A stretch of 32,000 bases of DNA from Patescibacteria group bacterium (GTDB taxonomy: Bacteria > Patescibacteriota > Patescibacteriia > UBA2591 > UBA6264): assembly GCA_028713575.1 (NCBI GenBank), contig JAQTOB010000004.1, positions 30,001 to 62,000 of the forward strand, given 5' to 3'. Made by a program: the position numbers and the translations under genes. The notes beneath the pieces were generated by a model. That model was given only the letters and a program-made list of their open reading frames with translations, was not told the origin of the DNA and ran no database searches. Positions 6,652 to 27,243 of the stretch are shown piece after piece (the first letter of the stretch is position 1; every line of letters starts with the position of its first letter).

Positions 6652-7695
6652 ATGGGGCTTTTTGGTATAAGAAAAAATAAAAGTTTTTTGGGCATTGATA
6701 TTGGGTCAACCAGCATCAAGTTGGTTGAATTAGGCAAAGAAAACGGTTTGCCGGTTTTATTGACTTATGGTTATGCCGAGAGGGCGATGAGCGATATTGT
6801 TAACGGTGATGCCAAAGAAATTTTGAGTAAAGTGGCAGTTTTGCTTAAAAAGTTATATACGCAGGCCGGAGCGGACAGCTATCAGGCAGTCACGGCTTTG
6901 CCGAATTTTTCAGTTTTCAATTCCGTGATTACCCTGCCGATGATGAGCAAAAAAGAACTTGATTCTGCGATTCATTGGGAGGCAAAAAAATTTATTCCTA
7001 TGCCCATTGAAGAAGTAATTTTAGATTGGCGAATTATTGATGTTATTGATGTGGATAAAAAAAGAAAAAATTATCGCATTCTTTTAACCGCCGCGGCAAA
7101 AAATTTGGTTAAAAGATATGTGGAAATTTTTAAACAAGCCGACCTGCAACTTCTTTTTTTGGAAACAGAAGCTTTTGCCTTAGTTCGTTCCTTGCTTGGT
7201 AAATCGCAAGCCACTACCATGATTATTGACACCAGTGCCGTCACCACGGATATTATTATTATTGAAAAGGGCGTGCCCGCGCTTAATCGTAGCATTGATG
7301 TTGGCGGGATTACTATTTCTCAGGCCATTGCCAATGGATTGAGCATTGATTTTAAAAGAGCGGAGCAATTTAAAAGAGACATTGGGATGAGCGGTCCTTC
7401 AAAAATTTCCCGGGTGATTGAAGAAATTTTAAAACCAGTAGTTGATGAGATGAGTTATTCTTTAAGGCTTTATCAGGATCAATCGGGTAAAAAAGTGGAA
7501 CAAATTATTTTGTCTGGCGGTTCGGCTTATTTGCCGGATTTATCCGATTATTTTTCAAAAATTATGAATATACGCGTTATTGTCGGCAATCCTTGGGCCC
7601 GTATTTCTTTTAACCAAGAATTAAAGCCGGCCTTGGATGAAGTGGCTCCGCGTTTTGCCGTTGCCATTGGTTTGGCTTTAAGGGAAATTATTTAA
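6652..7695 (+). CDS. pilM: Type IV pilus assembly protein PilM (actin-like ATPase fold)
   Basis: 347 aa with the N-terminal GIDIGSTSIKLVEL motif, internal motifs IIDTSAVTTDIII and DVGG, a C-terminal ILSGGSAYLPDL, and a position at the head of the pil block. Confidence 0.85.
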   Translation: MGLFGIRKNKSFLGIDIGSTSIKLVELGKENGLPVLLTYGYAERAMSDIVNGDAKEILSKVAVLLKKLYTQAGADSYQAVTALPNFSVFNSVITLPMMSKKELDSAIHWEAKKFIPMPIEEVILDWRIIDVIDVDKKRKNYRILLTAAAKNLVKRYVEIFKQADLQLLFLETEAFALVRSLLGKSQATTMIIDTSAVTTDIIIIEKGVPALNRSIDVGGITISQAIANGLSIDFKRAEQFKRDIGMSGPSKISRVIEEILKPVVDEMSYSLRLYQDQSGKKVEQIILSGGSAYLPDLSDYFSKIMNIRVIVGNPWARISFNQELKPALDEVAPRFAVAIGLALREII

Positions 7696-7699
7696 TAAT

Positions 7700-8401
7700 A
7701 TGGATTTGCAAAAAGATTTGGGAAAAGATAATTCTTCCGATACGGTTAAAAAAACCGGCTTGTTTAAATCTCTTTTTAAAAAGAGAAAAACAGAAGAAAA
7801 GTTAAAAAAAGAATCGGTTTTGAAAAATCTTAAACAAACGTCGGATAACGGCGACTTGGGAATCAGCCTGATGCCGGCAAAGGCGATTATCATTCCCCGT
7901 ATTGTTCATTCAAGAAGTTTATTTTTAATCGCGGCCATTATTGTTATTATTAATATTTTTATCATTACTTGGCTTTATCTTGATTGGCATTTTGAAAAAA
8001 TAGAGAACGCGGTGGCAGAAATTGAAAGAGAAATTCAATTTATGAAAACGCAAAGTTTATCCTTGTTAAATGTCAGAGACGAGATAGCCGTTTTGGAAAA
8101 AAATGCCGCTCGGGCAGAAAGTATTTTAAACAATCATATTTATTGGACGAAATTTTTTAGTTTATTGGAAAAATATACTATATCGGATGTTTTTTTCAAT
8201 GATTTTACCGCCGACACAAGCGGCATTATTCGTTTAGATTCAGTTGGTCGTGACCTTATTTCCATTGCTAAACAATTTGTCATTTTTTCTCAAGCCCCGG
8301 ATTTTGTCAAACAAGTGGATGTTTCCGATGTGGTTAATACGGTAAACGGCATCAGAGCCACCTATACTTTAGTTTTAGAAGATAATGTATTTAAAAGGTA
8401 A
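7700..8401 (+). CDS. pilN: PilN-like pilus assembly membrane protein
   Basis: 233 aa. The ISLMP motif resembles the INLLP PilM-binding motif. It is followed by a single TM (LFLIAAIIVIINIFIITWLYL) and a coiled coil. The gene starts 5 nt after pilM. Confidence 0.55.
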   Translation: MDLQKDLGKDNSSDTVKKTGLFKSLFKKRKTEEKLKKESVLKNLKQTSDNGDLGISLMPAKAIIIPRIVHSRSLFLIAAIIVIINIFIITWLYLDWHFEKIENAVAEIEREIQFMKTQSLSLLNVRDEIAVLEKNAARAESILNNHIYWTKFFSLLEKYTISDVFFNDFTADTSGIIRLDSVGRDLISIAKQFVIFSQAPDFVKQVDVSDVVNTVNGIRATYTLVLEDNVFKR

Positions 8402-8587
8402 GATATGGCAACATTGTAATTAGAAATATTAAGATTAAAACAAACAAGATTAATTTTTCCTTATAAATTACAAATTTCTTCGTTCCTCACTCAAGAGCTG
8501 CACTTAGGAGATTTGTTCCTAAGTATTTCTGATGGGGGATGCACCCCATCAGTTTGCCCCTAACGTCAATTTTAAGTTGTATATTCC

Positions 8588-8623
8588 AATGTTAAGATGT
8601 TAGAATGTTAAAATGATTTTTGT
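8588..8623 (+). repeat. Second 8-bp-unit array, running into the start of the pilO-like gene
   Basis: The register is aatgttaa|gatgttag|aatgttaa|aatgattt|ttgt-ATG. It ends with the same AATGATTT unit as the pilM array. Confidence 0.7.
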
Positions 8624-9181
8624 ATGGCGCAAATAAAAAAAACAGAAACAAAAAAAACAAAACTATACAGAAATGTCATTATTAGATTTTATTGGTTAGT
8701 TATTCTTGTTATTTTTCTTTTAAGTTTTTCATTTGAATATTTTGTTATTATTAAGCCGAAAATCCAGCAGACAAAAAATAACGGACCACTGGATTTAGCC
8801 AGTCGTCAAGTCGTTTTAAATGAACAAAAAGATTATCTTGGAAAATTAAAGGTCTTAAAAAATGAAGCAGAGAACATTAATCGCGTTGAATTGGAAAAAA
8901 TAAATTATGTCTTGGCGGAAAAAATAAATGTTTCTGATATTTTAAAACAAATATCCATCATTTCTCAGCAACCAAAATTTAATCTGGAGGGTTTTAGCTA
9001 TAAATACGGAGAAGGCGTTTTAATCTTTAATTTTAATTTTGTCGGTGGGACTTATCAGGATGTAAAAAAATTCTTGGAAGAAATTGAAAAAAATATCCGC
9101 GTTATGGATGTTACCAATATCGCGATTAAAAACGCCGGCGACGGATTTTCTTTGGTTATAAAAAGTTATTATTTGGAATAA
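8624..9181 (+). CDS. pilO: PilO-like pilus assembly membrane protein
   Basis: 185 aa with an N-terminal TM (FYWLVILVIFLLSFSF), a coiled coil, then a small alpha/beta C-terminal domain. The call rests on position between pilN-like and pilB. Confidence 0.5.
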   Translation: MAQIKKTETKKTKLYRNVIIRFYWLVILVIFLLSFSFEYFVIIKPKIQQTKNNGPLDLASRQVVLNEQKDYLGKLKVLKNEAENINRVELEKINYVLAEKINVSDILKQISIISQQPKFNLEGFSYKYGEGVLIFNFNFVGGTYQDVKKFLEEIEKNIRVMDVTNIAIKNAGDGFSLVIKSYYLE

Positions 9182-9182
9182 T

Positions 9183-9485
9183 ATGGCCAAAATAGGGAAA
9201 CAATATCTATTTTTAACAACATTTTTCCTTTTGATTTTAGTTATTGGTTTTATTGTTTTTAAAAATAGCGATGTTTTTTTAACCCCGGAAATTGAGGTTT
9301 CCGGTTTTGAAAAACCGGCTTATTTAAGTCAGCCGATTCCTAAAATAGATAAAATAAAAACAATTGTTGATAATCCGAAATTTAAAGAATTGAAATACAT
9401 TAAAAGTTTTTTTGAGCCGGTGGAGACAACTGTTTCCGGCCGGATTAATCCTTTTATTCCTTTTATAAATTTGGAAGAGAAATAA
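9183..9485 (+). CDS. Small single-pass membrane protein in the pil operon (function unknown)
   Basis: 100 aa with one TM (YLFLTTFFLLILVIGFIVF). Tightly packed: it starts 2 nt after the pilO-like gene and ends 12 nt before pilB. Confidence 0.5.
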   Translation: MAKIGKQYLFLTTFFLLILVIGFIVFKNSDVFLTPEIEVSGFEKPAYLSQPIPKIDKIKTIVDNPKFKELKYIKSFFEPVETTVSGRINPFIPFINLEEK

Positions 9486-9497
9486 TTTTTATAAATT

Positions 9498-11246
9498 ATG
9501 GCCGGACAGACAGATAACAATATTGTGCGTTTTTTAGCCCAACACGGGAAGATTTCTCAGGAGCAATTTCAGGAGCTTATTGCTGAAGCTCAAGAAGTTA
9601 ATATCTCTGCGGATCGGCTTTTGGAAACAAAAAAAATTCTTTCAGAAGAAGATGTCGCTTGGGCCAAAAGTCAGCTTTATAATATTCCCATTGCTGATAT
9701 TTATGGTATGGTGGTGGACAGAAAAGTTTTAGAAATAATCCCCAAAGATGTGGCCGAAAATTATAATGTTGTCGCCTTTGCCAAAGAAAAAGATATTTTA
9801 AAAGTGGCGATTCTTGACCCGAGTAATTTTAAGGCGCGTGAAGCGGTGGAATTTGTCGCCCGAAGAAAAAATTTAAAAGTGGAATTATGTACCGCCGCCA
9901 CAACAGCCCTGAAAAATATTTTGGCTCAATATGGCGGTTTGTCCGCGGAGGTTGAAGAAGTGGTTGGCGCGGTTGAATCAAGATTTGCATCAGTGGGCCA
10001 AGAGAAGAAAATAACCGGCGAAATGGACATAGAAAAAGCGGGACAAGAAGCACCCATTGCCAAATTGGTCAGTTCTATTTTAAAATATGCCGTGGACAAC
10101 CAAGCCTCAGACATTCATATTGAGCCGCTTTTAGATAAAACCAGGGTGCGTTACCGCTTAGACGGCATTTTAAAAGAGACCGCTCTTTTGCCCGGGCACC
10201 TTCATTCTTCTATTATTTCCAGAATAAAAGTGATGGCCAATCTTAAACTTGATGAAACTAGAGTACCCCAAGACGGCCGTATCCGAATTATGGCTGCCAA
10301 CAGAAAAATAGACCTTCGTATTTCTGTTCTTCCTCTTTTTGACAAAGAAAAAGTGGTGATGAGAGTTTTAGACCCGATGCGCAGAGTTTTTGATTTAAAG
10401 GATTTGGGGCTTTGGGGGAATGCGCTGGAAGTGGTTAATAAAAATTTAACGCGGCCGCACGGATTAATTTTGATTACTGGACCGACTGGTTCTGGTAAAA
10501 CCACTACGATTTTCGCCGCCATGAAAATTCTTAATCAGCCGGCGGTTAATGTGGTGACCCTGGAAGACCCGATAGAATATTTTTTGTCCGGGGCCAACCA
10601 GTCGCAAGTTAAGCCAAACATTGGTTATACTTTTGCTTCGGGCTTGCGTTCAATTGTTCGGCAAGACCCGGACATTATTATGGTGGGCGAAATTCGCGAC
10701 ACGGAAACAGCTGAATTATCTACGCACGCAGCCTTGACCGGTCATGTTGTTTTGTCTACTCTGCACACCAATGATTCTTTTGGCGCGATTCCTCGTTTAA
10801 TTGATATGGGCATTGAACCGTTTTTAATTGCCTCTTCAATGAATTTGGTTATTGCTCAGCGTTTGGTTAGAAAAATTTGTCCTCATTGCGCCGAACAAGT
10901 TGAACCCTCGCCACAGATTGAAGAATCAATTGAACAAAGCCTAAAAGACACTAAGGACATTGATTTGGATTATTATCGGGATAAAAAAACTAATCATTTG
11001 AAATTTTATCGCGGGCGCGGCTGTTCTCGTTGCAACAATGAAGGTTATCGCGGTCGTTTAGCCATTTTTGAAGCCTTGGAAATAACTGACGAAATGAAAA
11101 AAATTATTACTAGCGGCTGTAGAATAGAAGAAGTTAAAAATGAATTTTGCCGGCAAAAAATGATTACCATGCTTCAAGACGGATATATCAAAGTTTTGCG
11201 CGGAGAAACGACCATTGAAGAAGTTTTAAGGGCCGCCAGAGAGTAA
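9498..11246 (+). CDS. pilB: Type IV pilus assembly ATPase PilB (GspE family)
   Basis: 582 aa with Walker A GPTGSGKTTT, Asp box and Walker B (IIMVGEIRD), His box (TGHVVLSTLHTND), the tetracysteine motif CPHC..CSRC, and a GspE-type N-terminal domain. Confidence 0.95.
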   Translation: MAGQTDNNIVRFLAQHGKISQEQFQELIAEAQEVNISADRLLETKKILSEEDVAWAKSQLYNIPIADIYGMVVDRKVLEIIPKDVAENYNVVAFAKEKDILKVAILDPSNFKAREAVEFVARRKNLKVELCTAATTALKNILAQYGGLSAEVEEVVGAVESRFASVGQEKKITGEMDIEKAGQEAPIAKLVSSILKYAVDNQASDIHIEPLLDKTRVRYRLDGILKETALLPGHLHSSIISRIKVMANLKLDETRVPQDGRIRIMAANRKIDLRISVLPLFDKEKVVMRVLDPMRRVFDLKDLGLWGNALEVVNKNLTRPHGLILITGPTGSGKTTTIFAAMKILNQPAVNVVTLEDPIEYFLSGANQSQVKPNIGYTFASGLRSIVRQDPDIIMVGEIRDTETAELSTHAALTGHVVLSTLHTNDSFGAIPRLIDMGIEPFLIASSMNLVIAQRLVRKICPHCAEQVEPSPQIEESIEQSLKDTKDIDLDYYRDKKTNHLKFYRGRGCSRCNNEGYRGRLAIFEALEITDEMKKIITSGCRIEEVKNEFCRQKMITMLQDGYIKVLRGETTIEEVLRAARE

Positions 11247-11402: not shown

Positions 11403-12476
11403 ATGTCTACTCAAAATGAAATTATTTTAAATCGTATTTGTCAAAATAGCGCCGAAAAAAGGGCCTCAGAAGTTTATTTATTGCCAGCTCAGCCACCCTT
11501 TGTCAGAATTGACGGAAAAATGGGAATTTTGGCCGGCGAAAGCATTATCACCGCTTCTTTTATCAACGATTTTTTTAAAAATATTCTTGATGAAAGAGAG
11601 CAGTCCGTTTTAGAAAAAGAAAAGCAGATTGAAGTGATAAAAAATATCGGGAAAATGGGGGAGTGCCAAATAGATATTTATTATCAAAAAAATTCTTTGG
11701 CTTGCCGTATAAAATTATTGGCCCAAGAAGTTATTGACTTGGAAAAACTTGGCTTGCCTAAAATGGTTACTCGTTTTGCGGACTTTTTTAAAGGCATTAT
11801 TTTTATTGCCGGACCGCGCGATTCAGGTCGTTCCACTTTGGCAAATTCTATTTTAAATCATATTAATAAAAATCAAGCTAAATTTATCGCCACCGTAGAA
11901 AAACCCATAAAATCAATTTTAATTGGAAGAAGAAGCGTAGTTGAACAAAGAGAAGTGGGGAAAGATGTTCTTTCTTTTTTGTCCGGTCTCCGTTATATTC
12001 GGCAAAGAAATGCTGATGTCGTTTTTGTTTCGCAAATAGATGACGCAGCGACAATGGATGAAATTTTTGCTATTGTTGAGGCCGGAAGCTTGGTTTTTGC
12101 CATTATGGATACGGAATCAGCCATTAAAACAATTAAAAGAATTTTGCATTTTTATCCTACTGACAAAGAAGAAACCGCCCGTTATTTTTTAAGTGAAAAT
12201 TTAGCCGGCATTGTTGTTTCCCGTCTGGTTCCTAAAATTGGTGGTGGCCGAATTAGGGCTTTGGAGGTTTTGGCCGGTACGCCGGCGGTTCGTTCAATTA
12301 TCGCCAGTGGACGCTTTCATCAATTAGCCGGTGTTATCCAGGCGACAGAAGACCAAACCTCTGTTTCTTTAGACCAATCCTTGGTTGACTTAGTCACTTC
12401 AGGGAAAGTGGTTTCTGAAGAAGCCATAAAACATTGCAACAACGAAGAAATTTTTAGGAATTTGTTGAGAAAATAA
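11403..12476 (+). CDS. PilT-family protein with degenerate ATPase motifs (likely non-catalytic paralog)
   Basis: PilT-like N-terminus (ASEVYLLPAQPPFVRIDGKM) and C-terminus (GTPAVRSIIASGRFHQL, LDQSLVDLV). The ATG at 11403 is preferred over the TTG at 11382. The motif changes are listed in the findings. Confidence 0.8.
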   Translation: MSTQNEIILNRICQNSAEKRASEVYLLPAQPPFVRIDGKMGILAGESIITASFINDFFKNILDEREQSVLEKEKQIEVIKNIGKMGECQIDIYYQKNSLACRIKLLAQEVIDLEKLGLPKMVTRFADFFKGIIFIAGPRDSGRSTLANSILNHINKNQAKFIATVEKPIKSILIGRRSVVEQREVGKDVLSFLSGLRYIRQRNADVVFVSQIDDAATMDEIFAIVEAGSLVFAIMDTESAIKTIKRILHFYPTDKEETARYFLSENLAGIVVSRLVPKIGGGRIRALEVLAGTPAVRSIIASGRFHQLAGVIQATEDQTSVSLDQSLVDLVTSGKVVSEEAIKHCNNEEIFRNLLRK

Positions 12477-12480
12477 AGAG

Positions 12481-13195
12481 ATAATTAGATAATTGGGGTC
12501 GGAGATAATTGGGGTCTGACCCCATGAGCATCCCTTCTGAGATAATTGGGGTCTGACCCCATGAGTATCCCTTCTAAAACATACATGATAATTGGGGTCT
12601 GATAATTGGGGTCTGACCCCATGAGCATCCCTTCTAAAACATACATCAATAAAGGATTATAGAACGAAAATTTCAATTTGGCGCGATTTTGATTGATTTC
12701 CAATAATTTTTTATCAAAACAACGATTTTTGACACTAATTTTGGGGTCTACACTAATTTTGGGGTCTGACCCCATGAGCATCCCCTCTAAAACATACATC
12801 AATAAAGGATTATAGAACGAAAATTTCAATTTGGTGTGATTTTGATTGATTTCCAATCACTAATTTTGGGGTCTGACCCCATGAGCATCCCTTCTAAAAC
12901 ATACATCAATAAAGGATTATAGAACGAAAATTTCAATTTGGTGTGATTTTGATTGATTTCCAATAATTTTTTATTAAAACAACGATTTTAATTGAAAATT
13001 GATAATTATTTAATTTACATTTAATCACTAATTTTGGGGTCTGACCCCATGAGTATCCCTTCTAAAACATACATCAATAAAGGATTATAGAACGAAAATT
13101 TCAATTTGGTGCGATTTTGATTGATTTCCAATAATTTTTTAACAAAACAACGATTTTAATTGAAAATTGATAATTATTTAATTTACATTTTGCAT
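12481..13195. repeat. Array of composite repeat units (GGGGTCTGACCCC hairpin, body, shared AT-rich module, tail) filling the pilT-pilC gap
   Basis: Long units start at 12601, 12751, 12858 and 13026 (107 to about 170 bp, near-identical). Head-only or truncated copies start at 12488, 12504, 12541, 12587 and 12733. Confidence 0.95.
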
Positions 13196-13230: not shown

Positions 13231-14442
13231 ATGTTATTTGAATATCAAGCGAAAAATTTAAAAGGAGAAACCATCACCGGAACAATTGAATCCATTAATC
13301 AGAACGCCGCCCTTGAGATGTTGGCGCGCCGGCAAATGATTATTATCTCCCTGAAAGAAACAAGCGCTTTGCCCATTTGGCGCCGGCCGATTAATCTGTC
13401 TTTTTTAGAAAGAGTAACCGGCAAAGATATGGTTTTTCTTTCCCGCCAATTATCCGTAATGGTTATGGCGGGCTTGCCTTTGGTTGAATCTTTGGAAATT
13501 TTGGCGCGCCAAACAAGCAAACCGGCCTTAAAAAAGATTGTGGAAAGCGTTGCGGAAAATGTTCGTGGCGGTTCAAGATTTTCCAGCGCTTTAGCAAAGT
13601 ATCCCAAAGTCTTCAACAATTTTTATATTAATATGGTGCGCGCCGGAGAAACCGCGGGCAAACTTGACGAAGTCTTAGATTATTTGGCCAATGAACAGGA
13701 AAAAAATTATGATTTAATGAGTAAAATTAGGGGGGCTATGATTTATCCGATTTTTGTTATTTCTGCGGTTATTGGCGTGATGATTTTGATGATGGTTTTT
13801 GTTGTCCCTCAATTAACTGACATTTTAAAGGAATCGGGCGTATCATTGCCCTTGCCAACCAAAATTCTTATTGCCACTAGCGATTTTTTAGAAAATTATA
13901 CTTTATTAATCGTTTTGTTCCTTGTGGTTTTTGTTGTCGCTTTCAGGTTTTTTTTAAAAAGTAAAGCGGGTCAGATGATTTGGGACAAAACGCTTTTAAA
14001 AATGCCGATTTTTGGTGTTCTTTTTAAACAAGTTTATTTAGTTCGTTTTACTCGCAGTCTTTCTACTTTGATTATTGGCGGTATTCCTTTAACCGCGGGA
14101 TTAAAAATTGTTTCCGAAGTGGTAAGTAATTATGTTTTTAAAGAAATAATCCTTGACGCGATTATTGACGTGGAAGAGGGACGTTCGGTCAGCAATGCTT
14201 TTCTTAATTCTTCAGCCGTGCCTAAAATGCTTCCCCATTTAATGGCGATTGGAGAAGAAACCGGCAAGCTTGACGAAGTTTTGGGGAAAATTGCTGATTT
14301 TTATTCTCGGGAAGTGGAAAACATTTTAAGCAAATTAGTCACTTTGCTTGAACCGATTATTCTTATTTTTTTAGGAGTAGTTGTTGGCGGCATGGTTGCT
14401 TCTATTATTTTGCCAATGTATAAACTTGCCACCGCCTTTTAA
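13231..14442 (+). CDS. pilC: Type IV pilus platform protein PilC (GspF family)
   Basis: 403 aa with two GspF repeats (FSRQLSVMVMAGLPLVESLEIL and FTRSLSTLIIGGIPLTAGLKIV), three TM regions, and the C-terminal ILPMYKL motif. Confidence 0.95.
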   Translation: MLFEYQAKNLKGETITGTIESINQNAALEMLARRQMIIISLKETSALPIWRRPINLSFLERVTGKDMVFLSRQLSVMVMAGLPLVESLEILARQTSKPALKKIVESVAENVRGGSRFSSALAKYPKVFNNFYINMVRAGETAGKLDEVLDYLANEQEKNYDLMSKIRGAMIYPIFVISAVIGVMILMMVFVVPQLTDILKESGVSLPLPTKILIATSDFLENYTLLIVLFLVVFVVAFRFFLKSKAGQMIWDKTLLKMPIFGVLFKQVYLVRFTRSLSTLIIGGIPLTAGLKIVSEVVSNYVFKEIILDAIIDVEEGRSVSNAFLNSSAVPKMLPHLMAIGEETGKLDEVLGKIADFYSREVENILSKLVTLLEPIILIFLGVVVGGMVASIILPMYKLATAF

Positions 14443-14521: not shown

Positions 14522-14596
14522 GGGCGCTTGGCTCAGTGGTAGAGCGTTTGCTTCACATGCAAAAGGCCACAGGTTCAAATCCTGTAGCGCCCACCA
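14522..14596 (+). tRNA. tRNA-Val (anticodon CAC), CCA encoded
   Basis: Hand fold gives GGGCGCT/AGCGCCC (acceptor), GCTC/GAGC (D stem), TTTGC-TTCACAT-GCAAA (anticodon arm) and ACAGG-TTCAAAT-CCTGT (T arm), followed by discriminator A and CCA. Confidence 0.9.
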
Positions 14597-17120: not shown

Positions 17121-17148
17121 GCGAGTCATAACGATATCAATTTTAAAA

Positions 17149-17222
17149 TCGGGATGGTGGGATTCGCACCCACGGTCTCCACGTCCCGAACGTGGCGCAT
17201 TAGACTACTATGCTACACCCCG
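17149..17222 (-). tRNA. tRNA-Pro (anticodon CGG), no encoded CCA, atypical D and T loops
   Basis: The reverse complement folds as CGGGGTG/CATCCCG (acceptor), GCAT/ATGC (D stem), CCACG-TTCGGGA-CGTGG (anticodon arm) and GTGGG-TGCGAAT-CCCAC (T arm), with discriminator A. Confidence 0.8.
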
Positions 17223-17342
17223 ATTGGTGTAAATAATATAGATTATTTATGAAGATTTGACAAGGTCGCGCTTGAAATGTTTTCAAAATACTTTACTATA
17301 AATCAGGATGCGAGATGTTTAAATTAACCAAAAATCATATCC

Positions 17343-19052: not shown

Positions 19053-19409
19053 ATGAAAACAAGTAGTTTTAAAGAAAATTTAAAAAAGAAAATGGATGAA
19101 TATGTTCATTTTGTTTATAAAATTACTCTTAATTTTCCTAAAGCGGAAATATATGGAACTGTTTCTCAATTAAGAAGGGCGTCTTTGTCGGTGGTTTTAA
19201 ATTATATAGAAGGATTTGCCAGAAGAAAGAGACTTGTTCAATTGAATTTTTTAGAAATTTCTTACGGGTCGTTAAAAGAATCAAAATATCTTTTACATTT
19301 TGCTTTGATTGAAAATTATTTGGACACAAAAGACTATAAAATTGCTTTAAAAATGGCAGAAGAAATCGGAGCTATGCTTTGGACAGAAATATCTAATTTA
19401 GATAAATAA
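19053..19409 (+). CDS. Four-helix-bundle protein (23S rRNA intervening-sequence protein family)
   Basis: 118 aa. The motif SQLRRASLSVVLNYIEGFARR and the later SLKESKYLLHFA are typical of this family. Confidence 0.7.
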   Translation: MKTSSFKENLKKKMDEYVHFVYKITLNFPKAEIYGTVSQLRRASLSVVLNYIEGFARRKRLVQLNFLEISYGSLKESKYLLHFALIENYLDTKDYKIALKMAEEIGAMLWTEISNLDK

Positions 19410-22500: not shown

Positions 22501-25500
22501 ATGAAAATCAAAAACAAAATTTTTAGGAGGGTGAAACAAAAAATCACAAAAATTATTTTTGTTTTTTTAATGGTCGCGACGATGACGGGGAGTTTAACTA
22601 ACATTGCTCAAGCTTATTTATTAGACGCGGTTGATTTGTTAGGACAAATGGACACTTTAGACGAACCGATTTATACGCGAAGCACGCAAAACAATCCTTA
22701 TAGTACCATAGTCAGCAATGCGGTTTTCAACGGCGCGGAAGATGTGAAAATTGATACAGTTCATCACCGTTTATTCGTCGCCGACCGCAGTAACAATAGG
22801 GTTTTAGTTTATGATTTGGACGAAAATAATCAATTTGAACATTATGCCGCTGATTATGTTTTGGGTCAGCCGGATTTTACCACGGTCAGCGCCGGCACCA
22901 CGCAGAGCAAATTCAACGCTTCAAGATATATCGCCTATGATTCCAATCATCAGCGTTTGTTTGTTTCCGAAGAAGAAAATAAACGGGTAACGGTCTTTGA
23001 TTTATCCGAAGGAGTTACCACTGGTATGGACGCTTCTTATGTTCTTGGTCAGCCGGATTTCACCACCAGCGACACTACCACCACTTTATTTGGTTTTGAT
23101 TATTGTTGGGGACTGGCTTATGACTTAGATAATGATTATTTGTATGTGGCTGACGGATCTTCCCATAATCGTATTTTAATTTTTGATGTTGCCCCCGAAG
23201 AAATGTATAACTATAAACCGGCCTTTGCTCATTTGGGCTCTTTGATCGGCACTGCTTTGGACGATTCTCATTTTGAGGGTCCCCATGGCTTGGTTTTGGA
23301 CAAGACCAATGATATTTTATATGCGACCGACACCGACCATCATAGAATAATGATTTTTGATACAGAAGAAATTATCAATGGAGAAAGCGCGATTAATGTC
23401 CTTGGTCAATTAAATTTTACTTCAGATAGCACCAGCACTAGCAGCGTGGGTATGAATTACCCTTATAATGTTGATTTTGATGGAGTTGATGAGCGTTTAT
23501 TTGTTGCTGACGCTACCAATCATCGCGTAATGGTTTTTGACGTTTCTGGGGGAGTGACAGATGGCATGGAAGCCTCTTATGTTTTGGGTCAGATTGATTT
23601 TGACGCCAACAGTTCTGGCGCGACCCAATCTAAATTTAATAAGCCTCGCGGCGTGGCCTATAATTCCGTTACCAAAGAATTATATGTCGGCGATTCAGGC
23701 AATAATCGGATAATGGTTTTTGATTTATCCCAAGGTATTACTAACGGCATGAACGCTTCCAAACTTTTAGGACATACCACGCGCGGCGGCGTGCCGAATT
23801 GGACTTTTACCACTGCCAATCAAATGGGAGCACCTATTGACGACATCGGTTTGCACACGCCCGATAAAGTCCATTTTGATTCTGTCGGGCACCGTTTGTT
23901 CCAATCAGACCAGAACAATAGCCGTATCTTGGTTTATAATTTGGATGAAAATAATAATTTAATTGACCATGTTGCGGATTATGTGATTGGCAGAGATGAT
24001 TTTTTTACCGGCGGCTCGGACAATACCGGTGGCGGTCAAGCCGCTTTTAAATGGCAACATAATTCAATTCTTGATTCCGGGCGTCAGCGTTTATTCGTTT
24101 CTGATTCTTATAATAACCGGATTATGGTTTTTGACATTTCCGAAGGCATCGCCAACGGCATGAATGCGGCTTATGTTCTTGGTCAACCGGATTTTACTTC
24201 TTATGATGCGATTACTACCATTAGTGGCGTTAACGGGCCTCGCGGTTTTGCTTTTGATTCAAGCACTGACCGTTTATTTGTTGCCGACCGCAATAATCAT
24301 CGGGTTTTGGTTTATGATGTGGCGGAAATTGAAACCGGCGAAGACGCAATCAATGTTTTGGGCCAGTCCGACTTCACTAGCAACTCCGCAACCACTAGTA
24401 TCAGTGGCATGGACTATCCTTATGATTTAGCTTTGGACCAAACCAATCAACGTTTATTTGTTATTGACAAGAACAACAACCGAGTGGTTGTTTATGATGT
24501 GGCGGAAATTACTAACGGCGAAGACGCGGTGGCGGTTCTGGGTCAAGCTGATTTTAATTCTAAAATTGATACCGTTGAAGATGTTGAACAAAGGATTCAA
24601 ACCCAAGATAGATTATTTAACACCAGGGGAGTGGCTTATGATTCGGTTAATAATTGGTTATTTGTCGTGGAATACGCCGGTCATCGGGTAATGGTATTTG
24701 ATGTCACGGAAATTGAAAACGGCGAGCCGGCAATCAATGTTTTAGGAGACGAAACTTTTAATACGACTCTTTTGGAAACAATTGATGCCAATGAAAATAC
24801 GAATCGGGTCGCGACTGCCAGCAATTTTTGGACGCCCGAGACAGCGGAAATAGACGGAACCAATAGAAAATTATATGTTAGCGACCAAAATCATAACCGG
24901 ACCATGATTTTCCAATTGCCCAAAATTACGACTGCTTCATTAAGTAATGGCACTGTAGGCGAAGTTTATAGTCAAACAATTTCCGGTACTGGCGGCGCTG
25001 AGCCCTATGTTTGTTCTTTGGTCTCAGGCACTTTGCCCACTGGTTTATCCTTAAACGCTAATTGCACTATTACCGGCGCGCCATCAGCGGCCGGAACAGC
25101 CAATAATCTTGTTATTCGTTTTTCTGACAGTTCAATTACTTCGCCGGAAACAGTCGGCTTATGGCACAACAAAACTTTTAGTTTAACTGTTGACGAGTCT
25201 TTGGCTAACATTAAAATTTCAGCCAAAGCCGAATTAACCGCGGCCTTGGCGACTTATAATCAGGAGGATTACACCGAAGAAAACTGGACAGGTCTAAATA
25301 CTTATAAAACCGATGGCGACACAGCTATTGATGATGCCGAAGATACAGCCGGAGTTACAACAGCTAAAAATACGGCTATCAATGGAATGGCCGGAGTGGA
25401 AACCATTGCTCAAACACTTAAAACAATTACTGCTTTTTCTGTTCCTAATCAAGTTGGCGCGTCAACGATTAATCAAACCGACAAGACAATCAAATTAGTG

Positions 25501-27243
25501 GTTCCGTTTGGCACAGATGTTACTGACCTTGTGGCGTCTTTTACTACTACTGGCGCCTTGGTTAAAGTTAGCGGAGCAACACAAACCAGCGGTCAAACCG
25601 CTAATGATTTCACAAATTCTTTAATTTATACTGTTTCCGCCGTCAATGAGACAACACAGAATTATACGGTTAGTGTCACGGTCTTGACTAATACGCAAAC
25701 CGCCATAGATGATGAGGGCGCTGTTACCATTGATAACAGCACGCCTCAGGCGGTTATTATTAATCCAACTCAGGCAGTCACTGTTGATATTGCCGAAGAC
25801 ACGGAAGGCCCGAGCATTGATGTTAGTTCATTTATTAGTGCCGGAACAGGAACCATTCCTCAAATTACTATTACAGCCGCGAACGCGAATAATGTTAATG
25901 TAGCCATTCCCGCCTCCACCACTGTGACCAGTGCTGATTCGGCTTGGGATGGAGTAATTGCCGCGCCAGTCGTGACCACGGTCACTTTGCCCAATACTTC
26001 AGGAGAAATGAAAACATTAAGCACAGCCATTGAAGTCGGATTCTCCGGTGCCAAATTATCTTTTGATAAGGCGGTTAGGCTATTATTGCCGAACCAAGCG
26101 GGGAAAAGAGTAGGTTACATTAGAACAGGAATTGATTTTACGGAAATAACTTCGGTTTGTGACGCAGACAGCCAAGCGGTTGGCGACCTCTTGTCCGCTG
26201 ACGGTGAATGTAAAAAAGATGTGGGCAATGATTTAGTTGTCTGGACAAAACATTTTACTTCCTTTGCCACTTTTAGCGCGGTTCCTTTGTCTAGTGGCGG
26301 AGGAGGCGGCAGCGCTCCTGTTTTAGTGGGCCCCTCTGATTTAAGTTTAAAAATAAATAATGATGCATTGGAAACTTTTTCAAGAAATGTTGTTTTAAAT
26401 ATTAATGCCGCTAATGCCACGGAAATGTTAGTCGGCGATACTGTTGATTTTGCCAATGTTGATTGGGAAGAGTATGCGAGTTTGAAAAATTGGACCTTAA
26501 CTTCTGGCAATGGAGAAAAAATAATTTATATTAAATTTAGAGACAGCAGTCACAATGAATCTTCTGTAGTTTCCGACACGATTATATTAGAAGAAGAAAT
26601 AGTTGCGGTTGGCGAGGGAAGCTTGGTTAAAACTGCTGATTCTACTGCTTTGTATTTGATTCTTAATGCCAAGCGTCATGTTTTTCCGCACTTGGCCGTT
26701 TATCATTCCTGGTCTTATCCAAATGATTTTTCCACTGTTAAAACAATTACTACTGTTGAATTAAATCAATATCCGGAAGGCGATGCCGTTCCTTTCCGCG
26801 ACGGCTCAATGTTCAGGGGCACGACCCAATCCTTGTATGGTAAATCCGCTTCTGCTGTTTTTTATGTAGAAGACGGGAAATTAAGAGCAGTTAAATCAGG
26901 AGAAATTTATCAGACACTTTTTAATGACCCGAATTGGTCATTAGTCACTTGGGTTCCGGACGACTTGTTGGCCAAGTTTAATTATGAATTGTCTAATGAT
27001 TTAGATTCGTCAGATATCCATCCCAATGGTTCTTTGGTTAAATACCCTGATGCTCCTGCGGTTTACCTGATTAAAAATGGCAAAAAGCAACCCTTTTCTT
27101 CTTGGGACATTTTCGTCGCTAACGGTTATAGTCAAAGGAAGATTTTTGTCATTTCGGCTGAAGAGACCTATGAAACAGCAGAAATAATCAGCAGTTTAGC
27201 CGAATCCCTGACTACGCCAGTCATTGCTGCGATGTATCAATAG
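22501..27243 (+). CDS. Giant secreted surface protein: 12 NHL-type beta-propeller blades, Ig-like and other beta-sandwich domains, and a C-terminal ~190-aa domain shared with the S-layer-like protein
   Basis: 1580 aa with a signal peptide (..VATMTGSLTNIAQA). There are 12 repeats of the pattern hRLFVxDxxNNRvhVaDh followed by YVLGQPDFTS. A cadherin/Ig-like segment (GTVGEVYSQTISGTGGAEPYVCSLVSGTLPTGLSL) follows, then further beta-sandwich-like segments and a Gly linker (SSGGGGGS). Confidence 0.85.
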   Translation: MKIKNKIFRRVKQKITKIIFVFLMVATMTGSLTNIAQAYLLDAVDLLGQMDTLDEPIYTRSTQNNPYSTIVSNAVFNGAEDVKIDTVHHRLFVADRSNNRVLVYDLDENNQFEHYAADYVLGQPDFTTVSAGTTQSKFNASRYIAYDSNHQRLFVSEEENKRVTVFDLSEGVTTGMDASYVLGQPDFTTSDTTTTLFGFDYCWGLAYDLDNDYLYVADGSSHNRILIFDVAPEEMYNYKPAFAHLGSLIGTALDDSHFEGPHGLVLDKTNDILYATDTDHHRIMIFDTEEIINGESAINVLGQLNFTSDSTSTSSVGMNYPYNVDFDGVDERLFVADATNHRVMVFDVSGGVTDGMEASYVLGQIDFDANSSGATQSKFNKPRGVAYNSVTKELYVGDSGNNRIMVFDLSQGITNGMNASKLLGHTTRGGVPNWTFTTANQMGAPIDDIGLHTPDKVHFDSVGHRLFQSDQNNSRILVYNLDENNNLIDHVADYVIGRDDFFTGGSDNTGGGQAAFKWQHNSILDSGRQRLFVSDSYNNRIMVFDISEGIANGMNAAYVLGQPDFTSYDAITTISGVNGPRGFAFDSSTDRLFVADRNNHRVLVYDVAEIETGEDAINVLGQSDFTSNSATTSISGMDYPYDLALDQTNQRLFVIDKNNNRVVVYDVAEITNGEDAVAVLGQADFNSKIDTVEDVEQRIQTQDRLFNTRGVAYDSVNNWLFVVEYAGHRVMVFDVTEIENGEPAINVLGDETFNTTLLETIDANENTNRVATASNFWTPETAEIDGTNRKLYVSDQNHNRTMIFQLPKITTASLSNGTVGEVYSQTISGTGGAEPYVCSLVSGTLPTGLSLNANCTITGAPSAAGTANNLVIRFSDSSITSPETVGLWHNKTFSLTVDESLANIKISAKAELTAALATYNQEDYTEENWTGLNTYKTDGDTAIDDAEDTAGVTTAKNTAINGMAGVETIAQTLKTITAFSVPNQVGASTINQTDKTIKLVVPFGTDVTDLVASFTTTGALVKVSGATQTSGQTANDFTNSLIYTVSAVNETTQNYTVSVTVLTNTQTAIDDEGAVTIDNSTPQAVIINPTQAVTVDIAEDTEGPSIDVSSFISAGTGTIPQITITAANANNVNVAIPASTTVTSADSAWDGVIAAPVVTTVTLPNTSGEMKTLSTAIEVGFSGAKLSFDKAVRLLLPNQAGKRVGYIRTGIDFTEITSVCDADSQAVGDLLSADGECKKDVGNDLVVWTKHFTSFATFSAVPLSSGGGGGSAPVLVGPSDLSLKINNDALETFSRNVVLNINAANATEMLVGDTVDFANVDWEEYASLKNWTLTSGNGEKIIYIKFRDSSHNESSVVSDTIILEEEIVAVGEGSLVKTADSTALYLILNAKRHVFPHLAVYHSWSYPNDFSTVKTITTVELNQYPEGDAVPFRDGSMFRGTTQSLYGKSASAVFYVEDGKLRAVKSGEIYQTLFNDPNWSLVTWVPDDLLAKFNYELSNDLDSSDIHPNGSLVKYPDAPAVYLIKNGKKQPFSSWDIFVANGYSQRKIFVISAEETYETAEIISSLAESLTTPVIAAMYQ

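Follow-up and report, generated by a model that had tools for sequence, protein, structure and literature searches.

A degenerate PilT encoded between pilB and pilC in a Patescibacteria pilus operon as a PilT-family pseudo-ATPase under purifying selection

A degenerate PilT, here called dPilT, is encoded between pilB and pilC in the type IV pilus (T4P) operon of an ultra-small Patescibacteria group bacterium, within the 32,000-nucleotide stretch analysed here (the window; GenBank assembly GCA_028713575.1, contig JAQTOB010000004.1, positions 30,001 to 62,000). Its gene (11403..12476, + strand, stop included) is an intact open reading frame (ORF) of 357 aa. As read from its sequence, dPilT is a pseudo-ATPase held by purifying selection, and it belongs to the PilT family rather than to a new kind of system. 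Its fold, the loss of its catalytic residues, selection on the gene, conserved synteny, a co-existing canonical PilT, a single PilC and a single origin are all directly supported here. T4P are the best-conserved surface machine of the Candidate Phyla Radiation (CPR)/Patescibacteria, and work on cultivated Saccharibacteria links them with attachment to the host, twitching and DNA uptake (PMC12206443, PMC9894109). How a pilus machine changes from extension to retraction when its motors use a common platform has yet to be explained, and the class to which this bacterium belongs offers a natural experiment.

The family assignment of dPilT is clear. The TIGR01420 profile (PilT/PilU family) matches from model position 2 to 340 of 343 with 257.9 bits, a score that falls under the curated cut-off of 319.1 bits. 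T2SSE (PF00437) is the sole Pfam domain match, confined to residues 121–279, and at 52.1 bits (E 5.4e-14) it passes the gathering score of 24.9 bits. A phmmer search of PDB sequences gave a nearly gap-free alignment with Aquifex aeolicus PilT (2ewv, E 1e-59), as it did with PilT2 of T. thermophilus (5fl3) and PilT4 of G. metallireducens (6ojx). The start codon is ATG 11403, which aligns with the N-terminus of all orthologues (MSTQ.EIILNRIC). TTG 11382 was considered as an alternative start and ruled out, as all orthologues begin at the MSTQ position.

Within this family framework every nucleotide-hydrolysis motif is altered. Walker A, the P-loop (11811..11837, + strand, as are all motifs below), reads GPRDSGRST rather than GPTGSGKST, with Lys143 replaced by Arg, the invariant Gly140 by Asp and Thr139 by Arg. 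The Asp box (11892..11912) is TVEKPIK instead of TIEDPIE; D167 and the Mg-contacting E170 have both become Lys, and the first Glu, E166, is retained. Walker B (12015..12044) is DVVFVSQIDD against DVIFVGEMRD, placing Q211 at the position of the catalytic Glu, and the His box (12081..12113) is AGSLVFAIMDT against TGHLVFGTLHT, with the changes T227A, H229S and H236D. The Arg fingers of the N2D domain (11661..11669), equivalent to R81/R83 of G. metallireducens PilT, read E87-C88-Q89 in place of R-F-R. The helix equivalent to AIRNLIRE (12285..12308) is AVRSIIAS, and its Arg (the Arg296 equivalent) is Ala301. dPilT accordingly lies outside the canonical pattern at the TIGR01420 cut-off, Walker A, Asp box, Walker B, His box, Arg fingers and AIRNLIRE helix alike. 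A sequence-only reading of this DNA had already proposed a PilT fold with a Walker A Lys-to-Arg change at 11811-11837, a Walker B Glu-to-Gln change and a His box lacking both His. The Walker A string and its position are correct, and alignment to PilT structures bore out the other two motifs; the Arg-finger loss and the altered AIRNLIRE helix are additions to that list. The catalytic positions hold Arg, Gln, Ser and Asp, with no Lys, Glu or His among them. The neighbouring PilB, as had also been noted, keeps its own motifs intact (GPTGSGKTT, TLEDPIEY, IMVGEIRD, LTGHVVLSTLHT). With clear homology to an enzyme family and replaced catalytic residues, dPilT is by these sequence criteria a pseudoenzyme, and its residues indicate that it is without ATP hydrolysis capacity. 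In the subclade to which it belongs, normal ATP binding has probably been lost as well.

The predicted structure agrees with the profile match, and the PilT fold proposed earlier was recovered by both routes. An AlphaFold2 monomer model built with 32 family members as input has a mean predicted local distance difference test (pLDDT) score of 88.5 and a predicted template modelling score (pTM) of 0.74, and contains the two-domain PilT fold of N2D and a RecA-like C-terminal domain. Foldseek aligned the model over its full length with 5fl3 (E 1e-37, template modelling score (TM) 0.88) and with 6ok2, 6ojx and 6okv (TM 0.90–0.91); P. aeruginosa PilT 3jvv was also matched, and PilU 9n32 gave TM 0.80–0.84. 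Compared with canonical PilT (2ewv/2gsz, 5fl3, 6ojx, 3jvv), dPilT is of the same length, collinear and built on the same two domains, at 25–32% identity and TM 0.88–0.91. What it lacks relative to these proteins is the Walker A Lys, the Asp and second Glu of the Asp box, the Walker B Glu, both His of the His box, both N2D Arg fingers and the AIRNLIRE Arg.

The degenerate form is kept across relatives. An intact orthologue of the degenerate type, free of internal stops, is present in 26 of 41 related genomes, and the order pilB-dPilT-pilC is found at all 24 order-level loci with flanking sequence. Ratios of nonsynonymous to synonymous substitution (dN/dS) were calculated by the Nei-Gojobori method for pairs with unsaturated dS only, using the same genome pairs for each gene. 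They are 0.049–0.176 for dPilT, 0.052–0.189 for canonical PilT, 0.013–0.110 for PilB and 0.088–0.129 for PilC. dPilT is under selection in the same range as the live motors with which it shares a single PilC. The sequence-only reading had taken the gene for a pseudo-ATPase retained in the pilus operon, a view that purifying selection and synteny support.

Conservation at the altered motifs is uneven in an informative way. GPRDSGRST is near-invariant among orthologues down to ~55% identity, and in the subclade of the window's dPilT the new P-loop residues R139, D140 and R143 occur at frequencies of 0.83, 0.97 and 0.88. The former catalytic Glu position holds Q, R, K, E, S, H or T, the top residue reaching 0.48. 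Since the new P-loop is conserved while the catalytic Glu position drifts freely, as expected if catalysis is gone, the protein appears still to be needed. Of the two Arg-finger positions, 87 varies within the subclade and 89 is mostly Q (0.85), whereas canonical PilT has Arg at 1.00 in both. The same changes recur in dozens of orthologues, so the substitutions are not the chance drift of one sequence.

The host genome (24 contigs, 99.5% complete; its 692 kb are a usual size for CPR/Patescibacteria) also encodes a canonical counterpart. The check for a canonical pilT elsewhere in the genome found one on another contig (G000:C3:40485-41510), which scores 424.3 bits against TIGR01420 and has all motifs intact (GPTGCGKST, TLEDPIE, LVSEMRD, TGHLIFATLHT), with the helix AIANLIRE (PAIANLIRENK). 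It lies outside any pilus operon, flanked by an M23-peptidase-like gene and efp. This pairing is the rule in the order, where 25 of the 26 genomes with dPilT have a second PilT-like match, carrying canonical motifs in each of the 21 that were aligned. A second intact PilB of 570 aa is encoded on contig 1 (locus L003, 1144-2856, - strand) between valS and the gene for a 288-aa protein, with no pilus operon nearby. The PilC of the operon (13231..14442, + strand) comes from the genome's single T2SSF-domain gene, so that four PilT/VirB11-type proteins (two PilBs, PilT and dPilT) must share one platform.

Phylogenetic trees place the origin of dPilT in the operon itself. A FastTree analysis of 155 sequences and an IQ-TREE (LG+C20) analysis of 83 agree on the following points of topology. 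All proteins without a His box form one clade with support of 100. Its closest grouping, with support of 96, is with canonical PilTs encoded in the pilus operons of other Patescibacteria classes. The unlinked canonical PilTs of the class to which this genome belongs form a separate lineage. In those other classes the slot between pilB and pilC holds a canonical PilT in all eight sampled genomes, while sampled members of this genome's class and order have a degenerate PilT there, genome G293 being without the dead copy. dPilT has the same gene position as the canonical PilT of those classes, and it derives from the in-operon lineage. By tree and position, dPilT is a positional descendant of the operon's original pilT, and the working PilT of the class is of another PilT lineage. 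At the G293 locus (L083, G293:C5:91700-98700) the order is pilT-pilB-pilC, with nothing between pilB and pilC. As the canonical pilT of G293 sits upstream of pilB, the position of pilT varies within the class.

Degeneration within the clade looks stepwise, hydrolysis residues having gone first and nucleotide-binding residues later. The second His is absent in all 107 proteins of the degenerate clade and the Walker A Lys is replaced by Arg in 95 of them. Most of the wider clade still has RF(R/K) and both Glu of the Asp box, and in many cases the Walker B Glu persists too. In the subclade of the window's dPilT, which is nested, strongly supported and set on a long stem of 0.77 substitutions per site, the Arg fingers are additionally lost, the Asp box is basic and the P-loop carries an Asp. 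By these residues the window's dPilT belongs to the most degenerate subclade. The clade thus provides a graded series, from hydrolysis-dead proteins to those in which nucleotide-binding residues are gone as well, along which the change from hexameric motor to regulator can be studied.

The clade is widespread. In a class-level sample of 71 genomes, one per family, degenerate copies verified by motif are present in at least 32 families, and 23 of the 24 best-scoring genomes with a degenerate copy in this sample have a second PilT-like gene. Across the phylum the clade hidden Markov model (HMM) matched 327 of 401 genomes, with 17 of 20 sampled top matches proving canonical. HMM bit scores fail to separate dead from live PilT, which is why classification relied on motifs and the smaller class sample. 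Among the 150 best matches from 1.84 billion representative proteins, ~60 are single-domain dPilT-like proteins. Named sources of such proteins are Parcubacteria, Buchananbacteria, Kerfeldbacteria and 'Patescibacteria group' metagenome-assembled genomes. The label given to these genes is usually 'twitching motility protein PilT' or that of a generic type II secretion system/T4P ATPase, so inferences of retraction may rest on the wrong gene. The same search context yielded tandem PilT-PilT metagenomic proteins of 660–1024 aa (P0123-P0129, P0131, P0135, P0170, P0174, P0191). The N-terminal module is degenerate in P0131 and P0174 (GNRGSGRSC / GSSSAVTVSE, with no His box) and the C-terminal one canonical, and both modules are altered in P0170 and P0135.

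No account of a naturally occurring dead PilT turned up in a search of full-text literature. Work on Saccharibacteria T4P describes well-conserved Walker boxes, and the four PilT paralogues of Geobacter have intact motifs in all. PilU lacks the canonical AIRNLIRE motif. Like dPilT it is a second PilT-family paralogue, as in P. aeruginosa (9n32), but unlike dPilT, whose motifs are lost, PilU has intact ATPase motifs and requires its ATPase activity for function (PMC6821130). The nearest comparison is with dead PilTs engineered by K136A and E204A in V. cholerae and A. baylyi (PMC6821130, PMC6762196), which like dPilT stand beside another PilT-family ATPase that is active. The engineered proteins are point mutants made in the laboratory and keep their other motifs, whereas the loss in dPilT is natural, ancient, clade-wide and extends to all motifs. 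The active partner also differs, being PilT-like with an AIRNLIRE-like helix in the case of dPilT and PilU in the engineered systems. dPilT is a natural counterpart of the K136A/E204A alleles that exposed the non-catalytic role of PilT. A further parallel is found in archaea, where ArlH/FlaH is a RecA/KaiC-like, ATP-binding, non-motor ring partner of the archaellum motor ATPase ArlI. The likeness is one of concept, that of a non-motor P-loop ring beside a PilT/VirB11-family motor at a PilC-like platform. ArlH/FlaH differs from dPilT in that its fold lineage is KaiC-like rather than PilT-like, and in that it retains Walker A and binds ATP.

The packing interfaces known from G. metallireducens PilT give some indication of what dPilT may still do. 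McCallum et al. 2019 (PMC6858323) described the contacts of its closed, ATP-favoured and its open packing-unit interfaces, and these were mapped to dPilT through the 6ojx alignment. Residues linked to nucleotide, Mg and the closed interface are all replaced in dPilT: T133 corresponds to R139, D161 to K167, E164 to K170, R81 to E87, R83 to Q89, R195 to Q201 (a variable position), T221 to A227 and H230 to D236. Interface and packing positions that are retained and highly conserved in the subclade are E166, I169, E184, G186, E226, R246, L275, P277, G282 and R283. The R81/E164 pair is E87/K170 in the nearest relatives of the window's dPilT, with N, D or S at position 87 elsewhere, a possible charge swap that would keep the inter-domain contact without nucleotide. 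Read together, these substitutions suggest that dPilT can still form PilT-like assemblies, ones incapable of ATP-driven open/closed cycling.

The explanation we lean towards is that dPilT forms a PilT-fold ring without catalysis, which would sit on the PilC/PilM base and influence the exchange of motors there. dPilT descends from the retraction ATPase ancestrally placed between pilB and pilC, and purifying selection maintains it as a functional component of the T4P system, with retraction now powered by the separate, unlinked canonical PilT. It would assemble into a PilT-like ring, dock on the machine's single PilC/PilM base, and there compete or take turns with the true PilT and both PilBs. 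Occupying the base independently of nucleotide, it would control when pili extend and retract; it might, for instance, keep them extended or determine how frequently each motor gains access. Ring formation, docking on PilC/PilM and the regulatory effect are inferred. A precedent comes from V. cholerae, where PilT K136A still formed rings and kept its interaction with PilC in a two-hybrid assay (PMC6821130). In the same system PilU retracts pili only when PilT is present, whether active or not (PMC6821130).

Several observations weigh against this explanation. Residues linked to PilC binding by McCallum et al. (the equivalents of R123 and R294/R296) are not conserved in dPilT, so its docking may differ from that of PilT, and the AIRNLIRE helix is altered. 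The interface mapping is itself approximate at less conserved positions. Finally, the strongly conserved new P-loop (R139, D140, R143) could point to a new ligand rather than an empty site.

A more specific proposal, put forward tentatively, treats dPilT as a third, nucleotide-independent 'motor-shaped' state, in which the dead ring clamps PilC and locks pili in an extended, host-bound form until the true PilT displaces it. The P-loop would then be self-occupied, with Asp140 and Lys170 standing in for phosphate and Mg. If this were true, dPilT would serve episymbiotic attachment as an integral clutch or latch, and the successive losses along the tree would trace the evolution of a motor into a latch.

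The main alternative to the favoured ring, held with low confidence, is that dPilT is a docking adaptor, the dead ring engaging the machine and the unlinked canonical ATPase powering retraction through it. Such an adaptor would be a natural form of the arrangement in Vibrio and Acinetobacter, in which retraction by PilU needs a PilT, be it ATPase-dead. In V. cholerae, pilT K136A, E204A and the double mutant allow near-normal PilU retraction and a pilT deletion does not (PMC6821130), a precedent that supports such an adaptor equally with the favoured non-catalytic ring. dPilT is nearly always accompanied by another, active paralogue from a separate PilT lineage and is the copy encoded within the machine operon, as would suit an adaptor. 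However, the active copy retains an AIRNLIRE-like helix (PAIANLIRENK) that dPilT has lost, the reverse of the PilT/PilU pattern. Moreover, some members of the class, G293 among them, have the same canonical lineage without dPilT, so canonical PilT can work alone.

PilB could instead be the target, as PilZ/FimX and CpiA act on PilB in proteobacteria. dPilT would then bind PilB, or enter mixed rings with PilB or PilT, to tune or poison activity, which we regard as unlikely. It is encoded directly after pilB in every flanked locus, and the genome offers two PilB paralogues to discriminate between. The half-dead tandem fusions P0131 and P0174 suggest that dead and live modules can work in one assembly, but these fusions may lie outside the dead clade of CPR. 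PilT and PilU each assemble into a homohexamer of their own, rather than into mixed rings, in the single system examined so far (PMC6821130).

A role for dPilT as a sensor of nucleotide or another phosphate ligand, or as a very slow, atypical nucleoside triphosphatase acting through Arg143, seems improbable for the window's protein. The P-loop glycines, the Ser/Thr and the Arg at the Lys position are conserved clade-wide (GxxxSGR[ST]T), and the subclade shows no variation at R283, which corresponds to R278 beside the nucleotide site of G. metallireducens PilT. Nucleotide binding is plausible in the wider clade, where the Arg fingers and both Glu of the Asp box persist, frequently together with the Walker B Glu. 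In contrast, the subclade of the window's dPilT is without both Arg fingers, has Lys for the Mg-contacting Glu and Asp for the invariant P-loop Gly, and varies freely at the catalytic Glu position.

That dPilT is a decaying pseudogene whose frame happens still to be open, as the sequence-only reading had allowed, is barely credible: all its catalytic motifs are gone and it has evolved somewhat faster than PilB (long-range identity 47–66% against 64–70%), but with no frameshift or stop in any relative, dN/dS of 0.05–0.18, a deep single-origin clade, conserved replacement residues at the old motif sites and a confident predicted fold, this possibility is refuted so far as sequence can show.

The operon as a whole runs pilM, pilN-like, pilO, a small transmembrane protein gene, pilB, dPilT, a repeat array and pilC. 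On the + strand pilM lies at 6652-7695 (PilM_2, E 5.5e-48), followed upstream of pilB by the pilN-like gene at 7700-8401, pilO at 8624-9181 (a weak PilO match, E 8e-4) and the small transmembrane protein gene at 9183-9485. This upstream order from pilM to the small transmembrane protein gene (6652..9485) recurs in locus L006. The PilB assembly ATPase (9498..11246, + strand; PF00437 414.7 bits, TIGR02538 542.7 bits) is encoded directly upstream of dPilT. No convincing terminator or Shine-Dalgarno sequence was found at the pilB-dPilT junction, a result that is uninformative in an AT-rich genome.

Downstream of dPilT, still inside the operon, a hairpin-repeat array (12481..13195, no strand assigned) fills the 755-bp spacer that separates dPilT from pilC. 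In it a 37-nt unit bearing a GGGGTC-TGACCCC hairpin occurs six times and a 168-nt unit four times. The corresponding spacer in orthologous loci is only ~10–140 bp. Directly 3' of pilC is tRNA-Val(CAC), and a tRNA-Pro(CGG) gene is on the minus strand (14522-14596 and 17148-17223, respectively). These two tRNA genes form the downstream boundary of the pilus operon.

Further along the window, a small bAvd-like protein of the 23S-rRNA-intervening-sequence type (PF05635, PF22296) is encoded at 19053-19409. Proteins of the bAvd type accompany diversity-generating retroelements, and no reverse transcriptase was found among the window ORFs scanned. The bAvd-like gene lies 3 kb upstream of a gene at 22501-27243 that encodes a 1580-aa NHL-repeat/beta-propeller protein.

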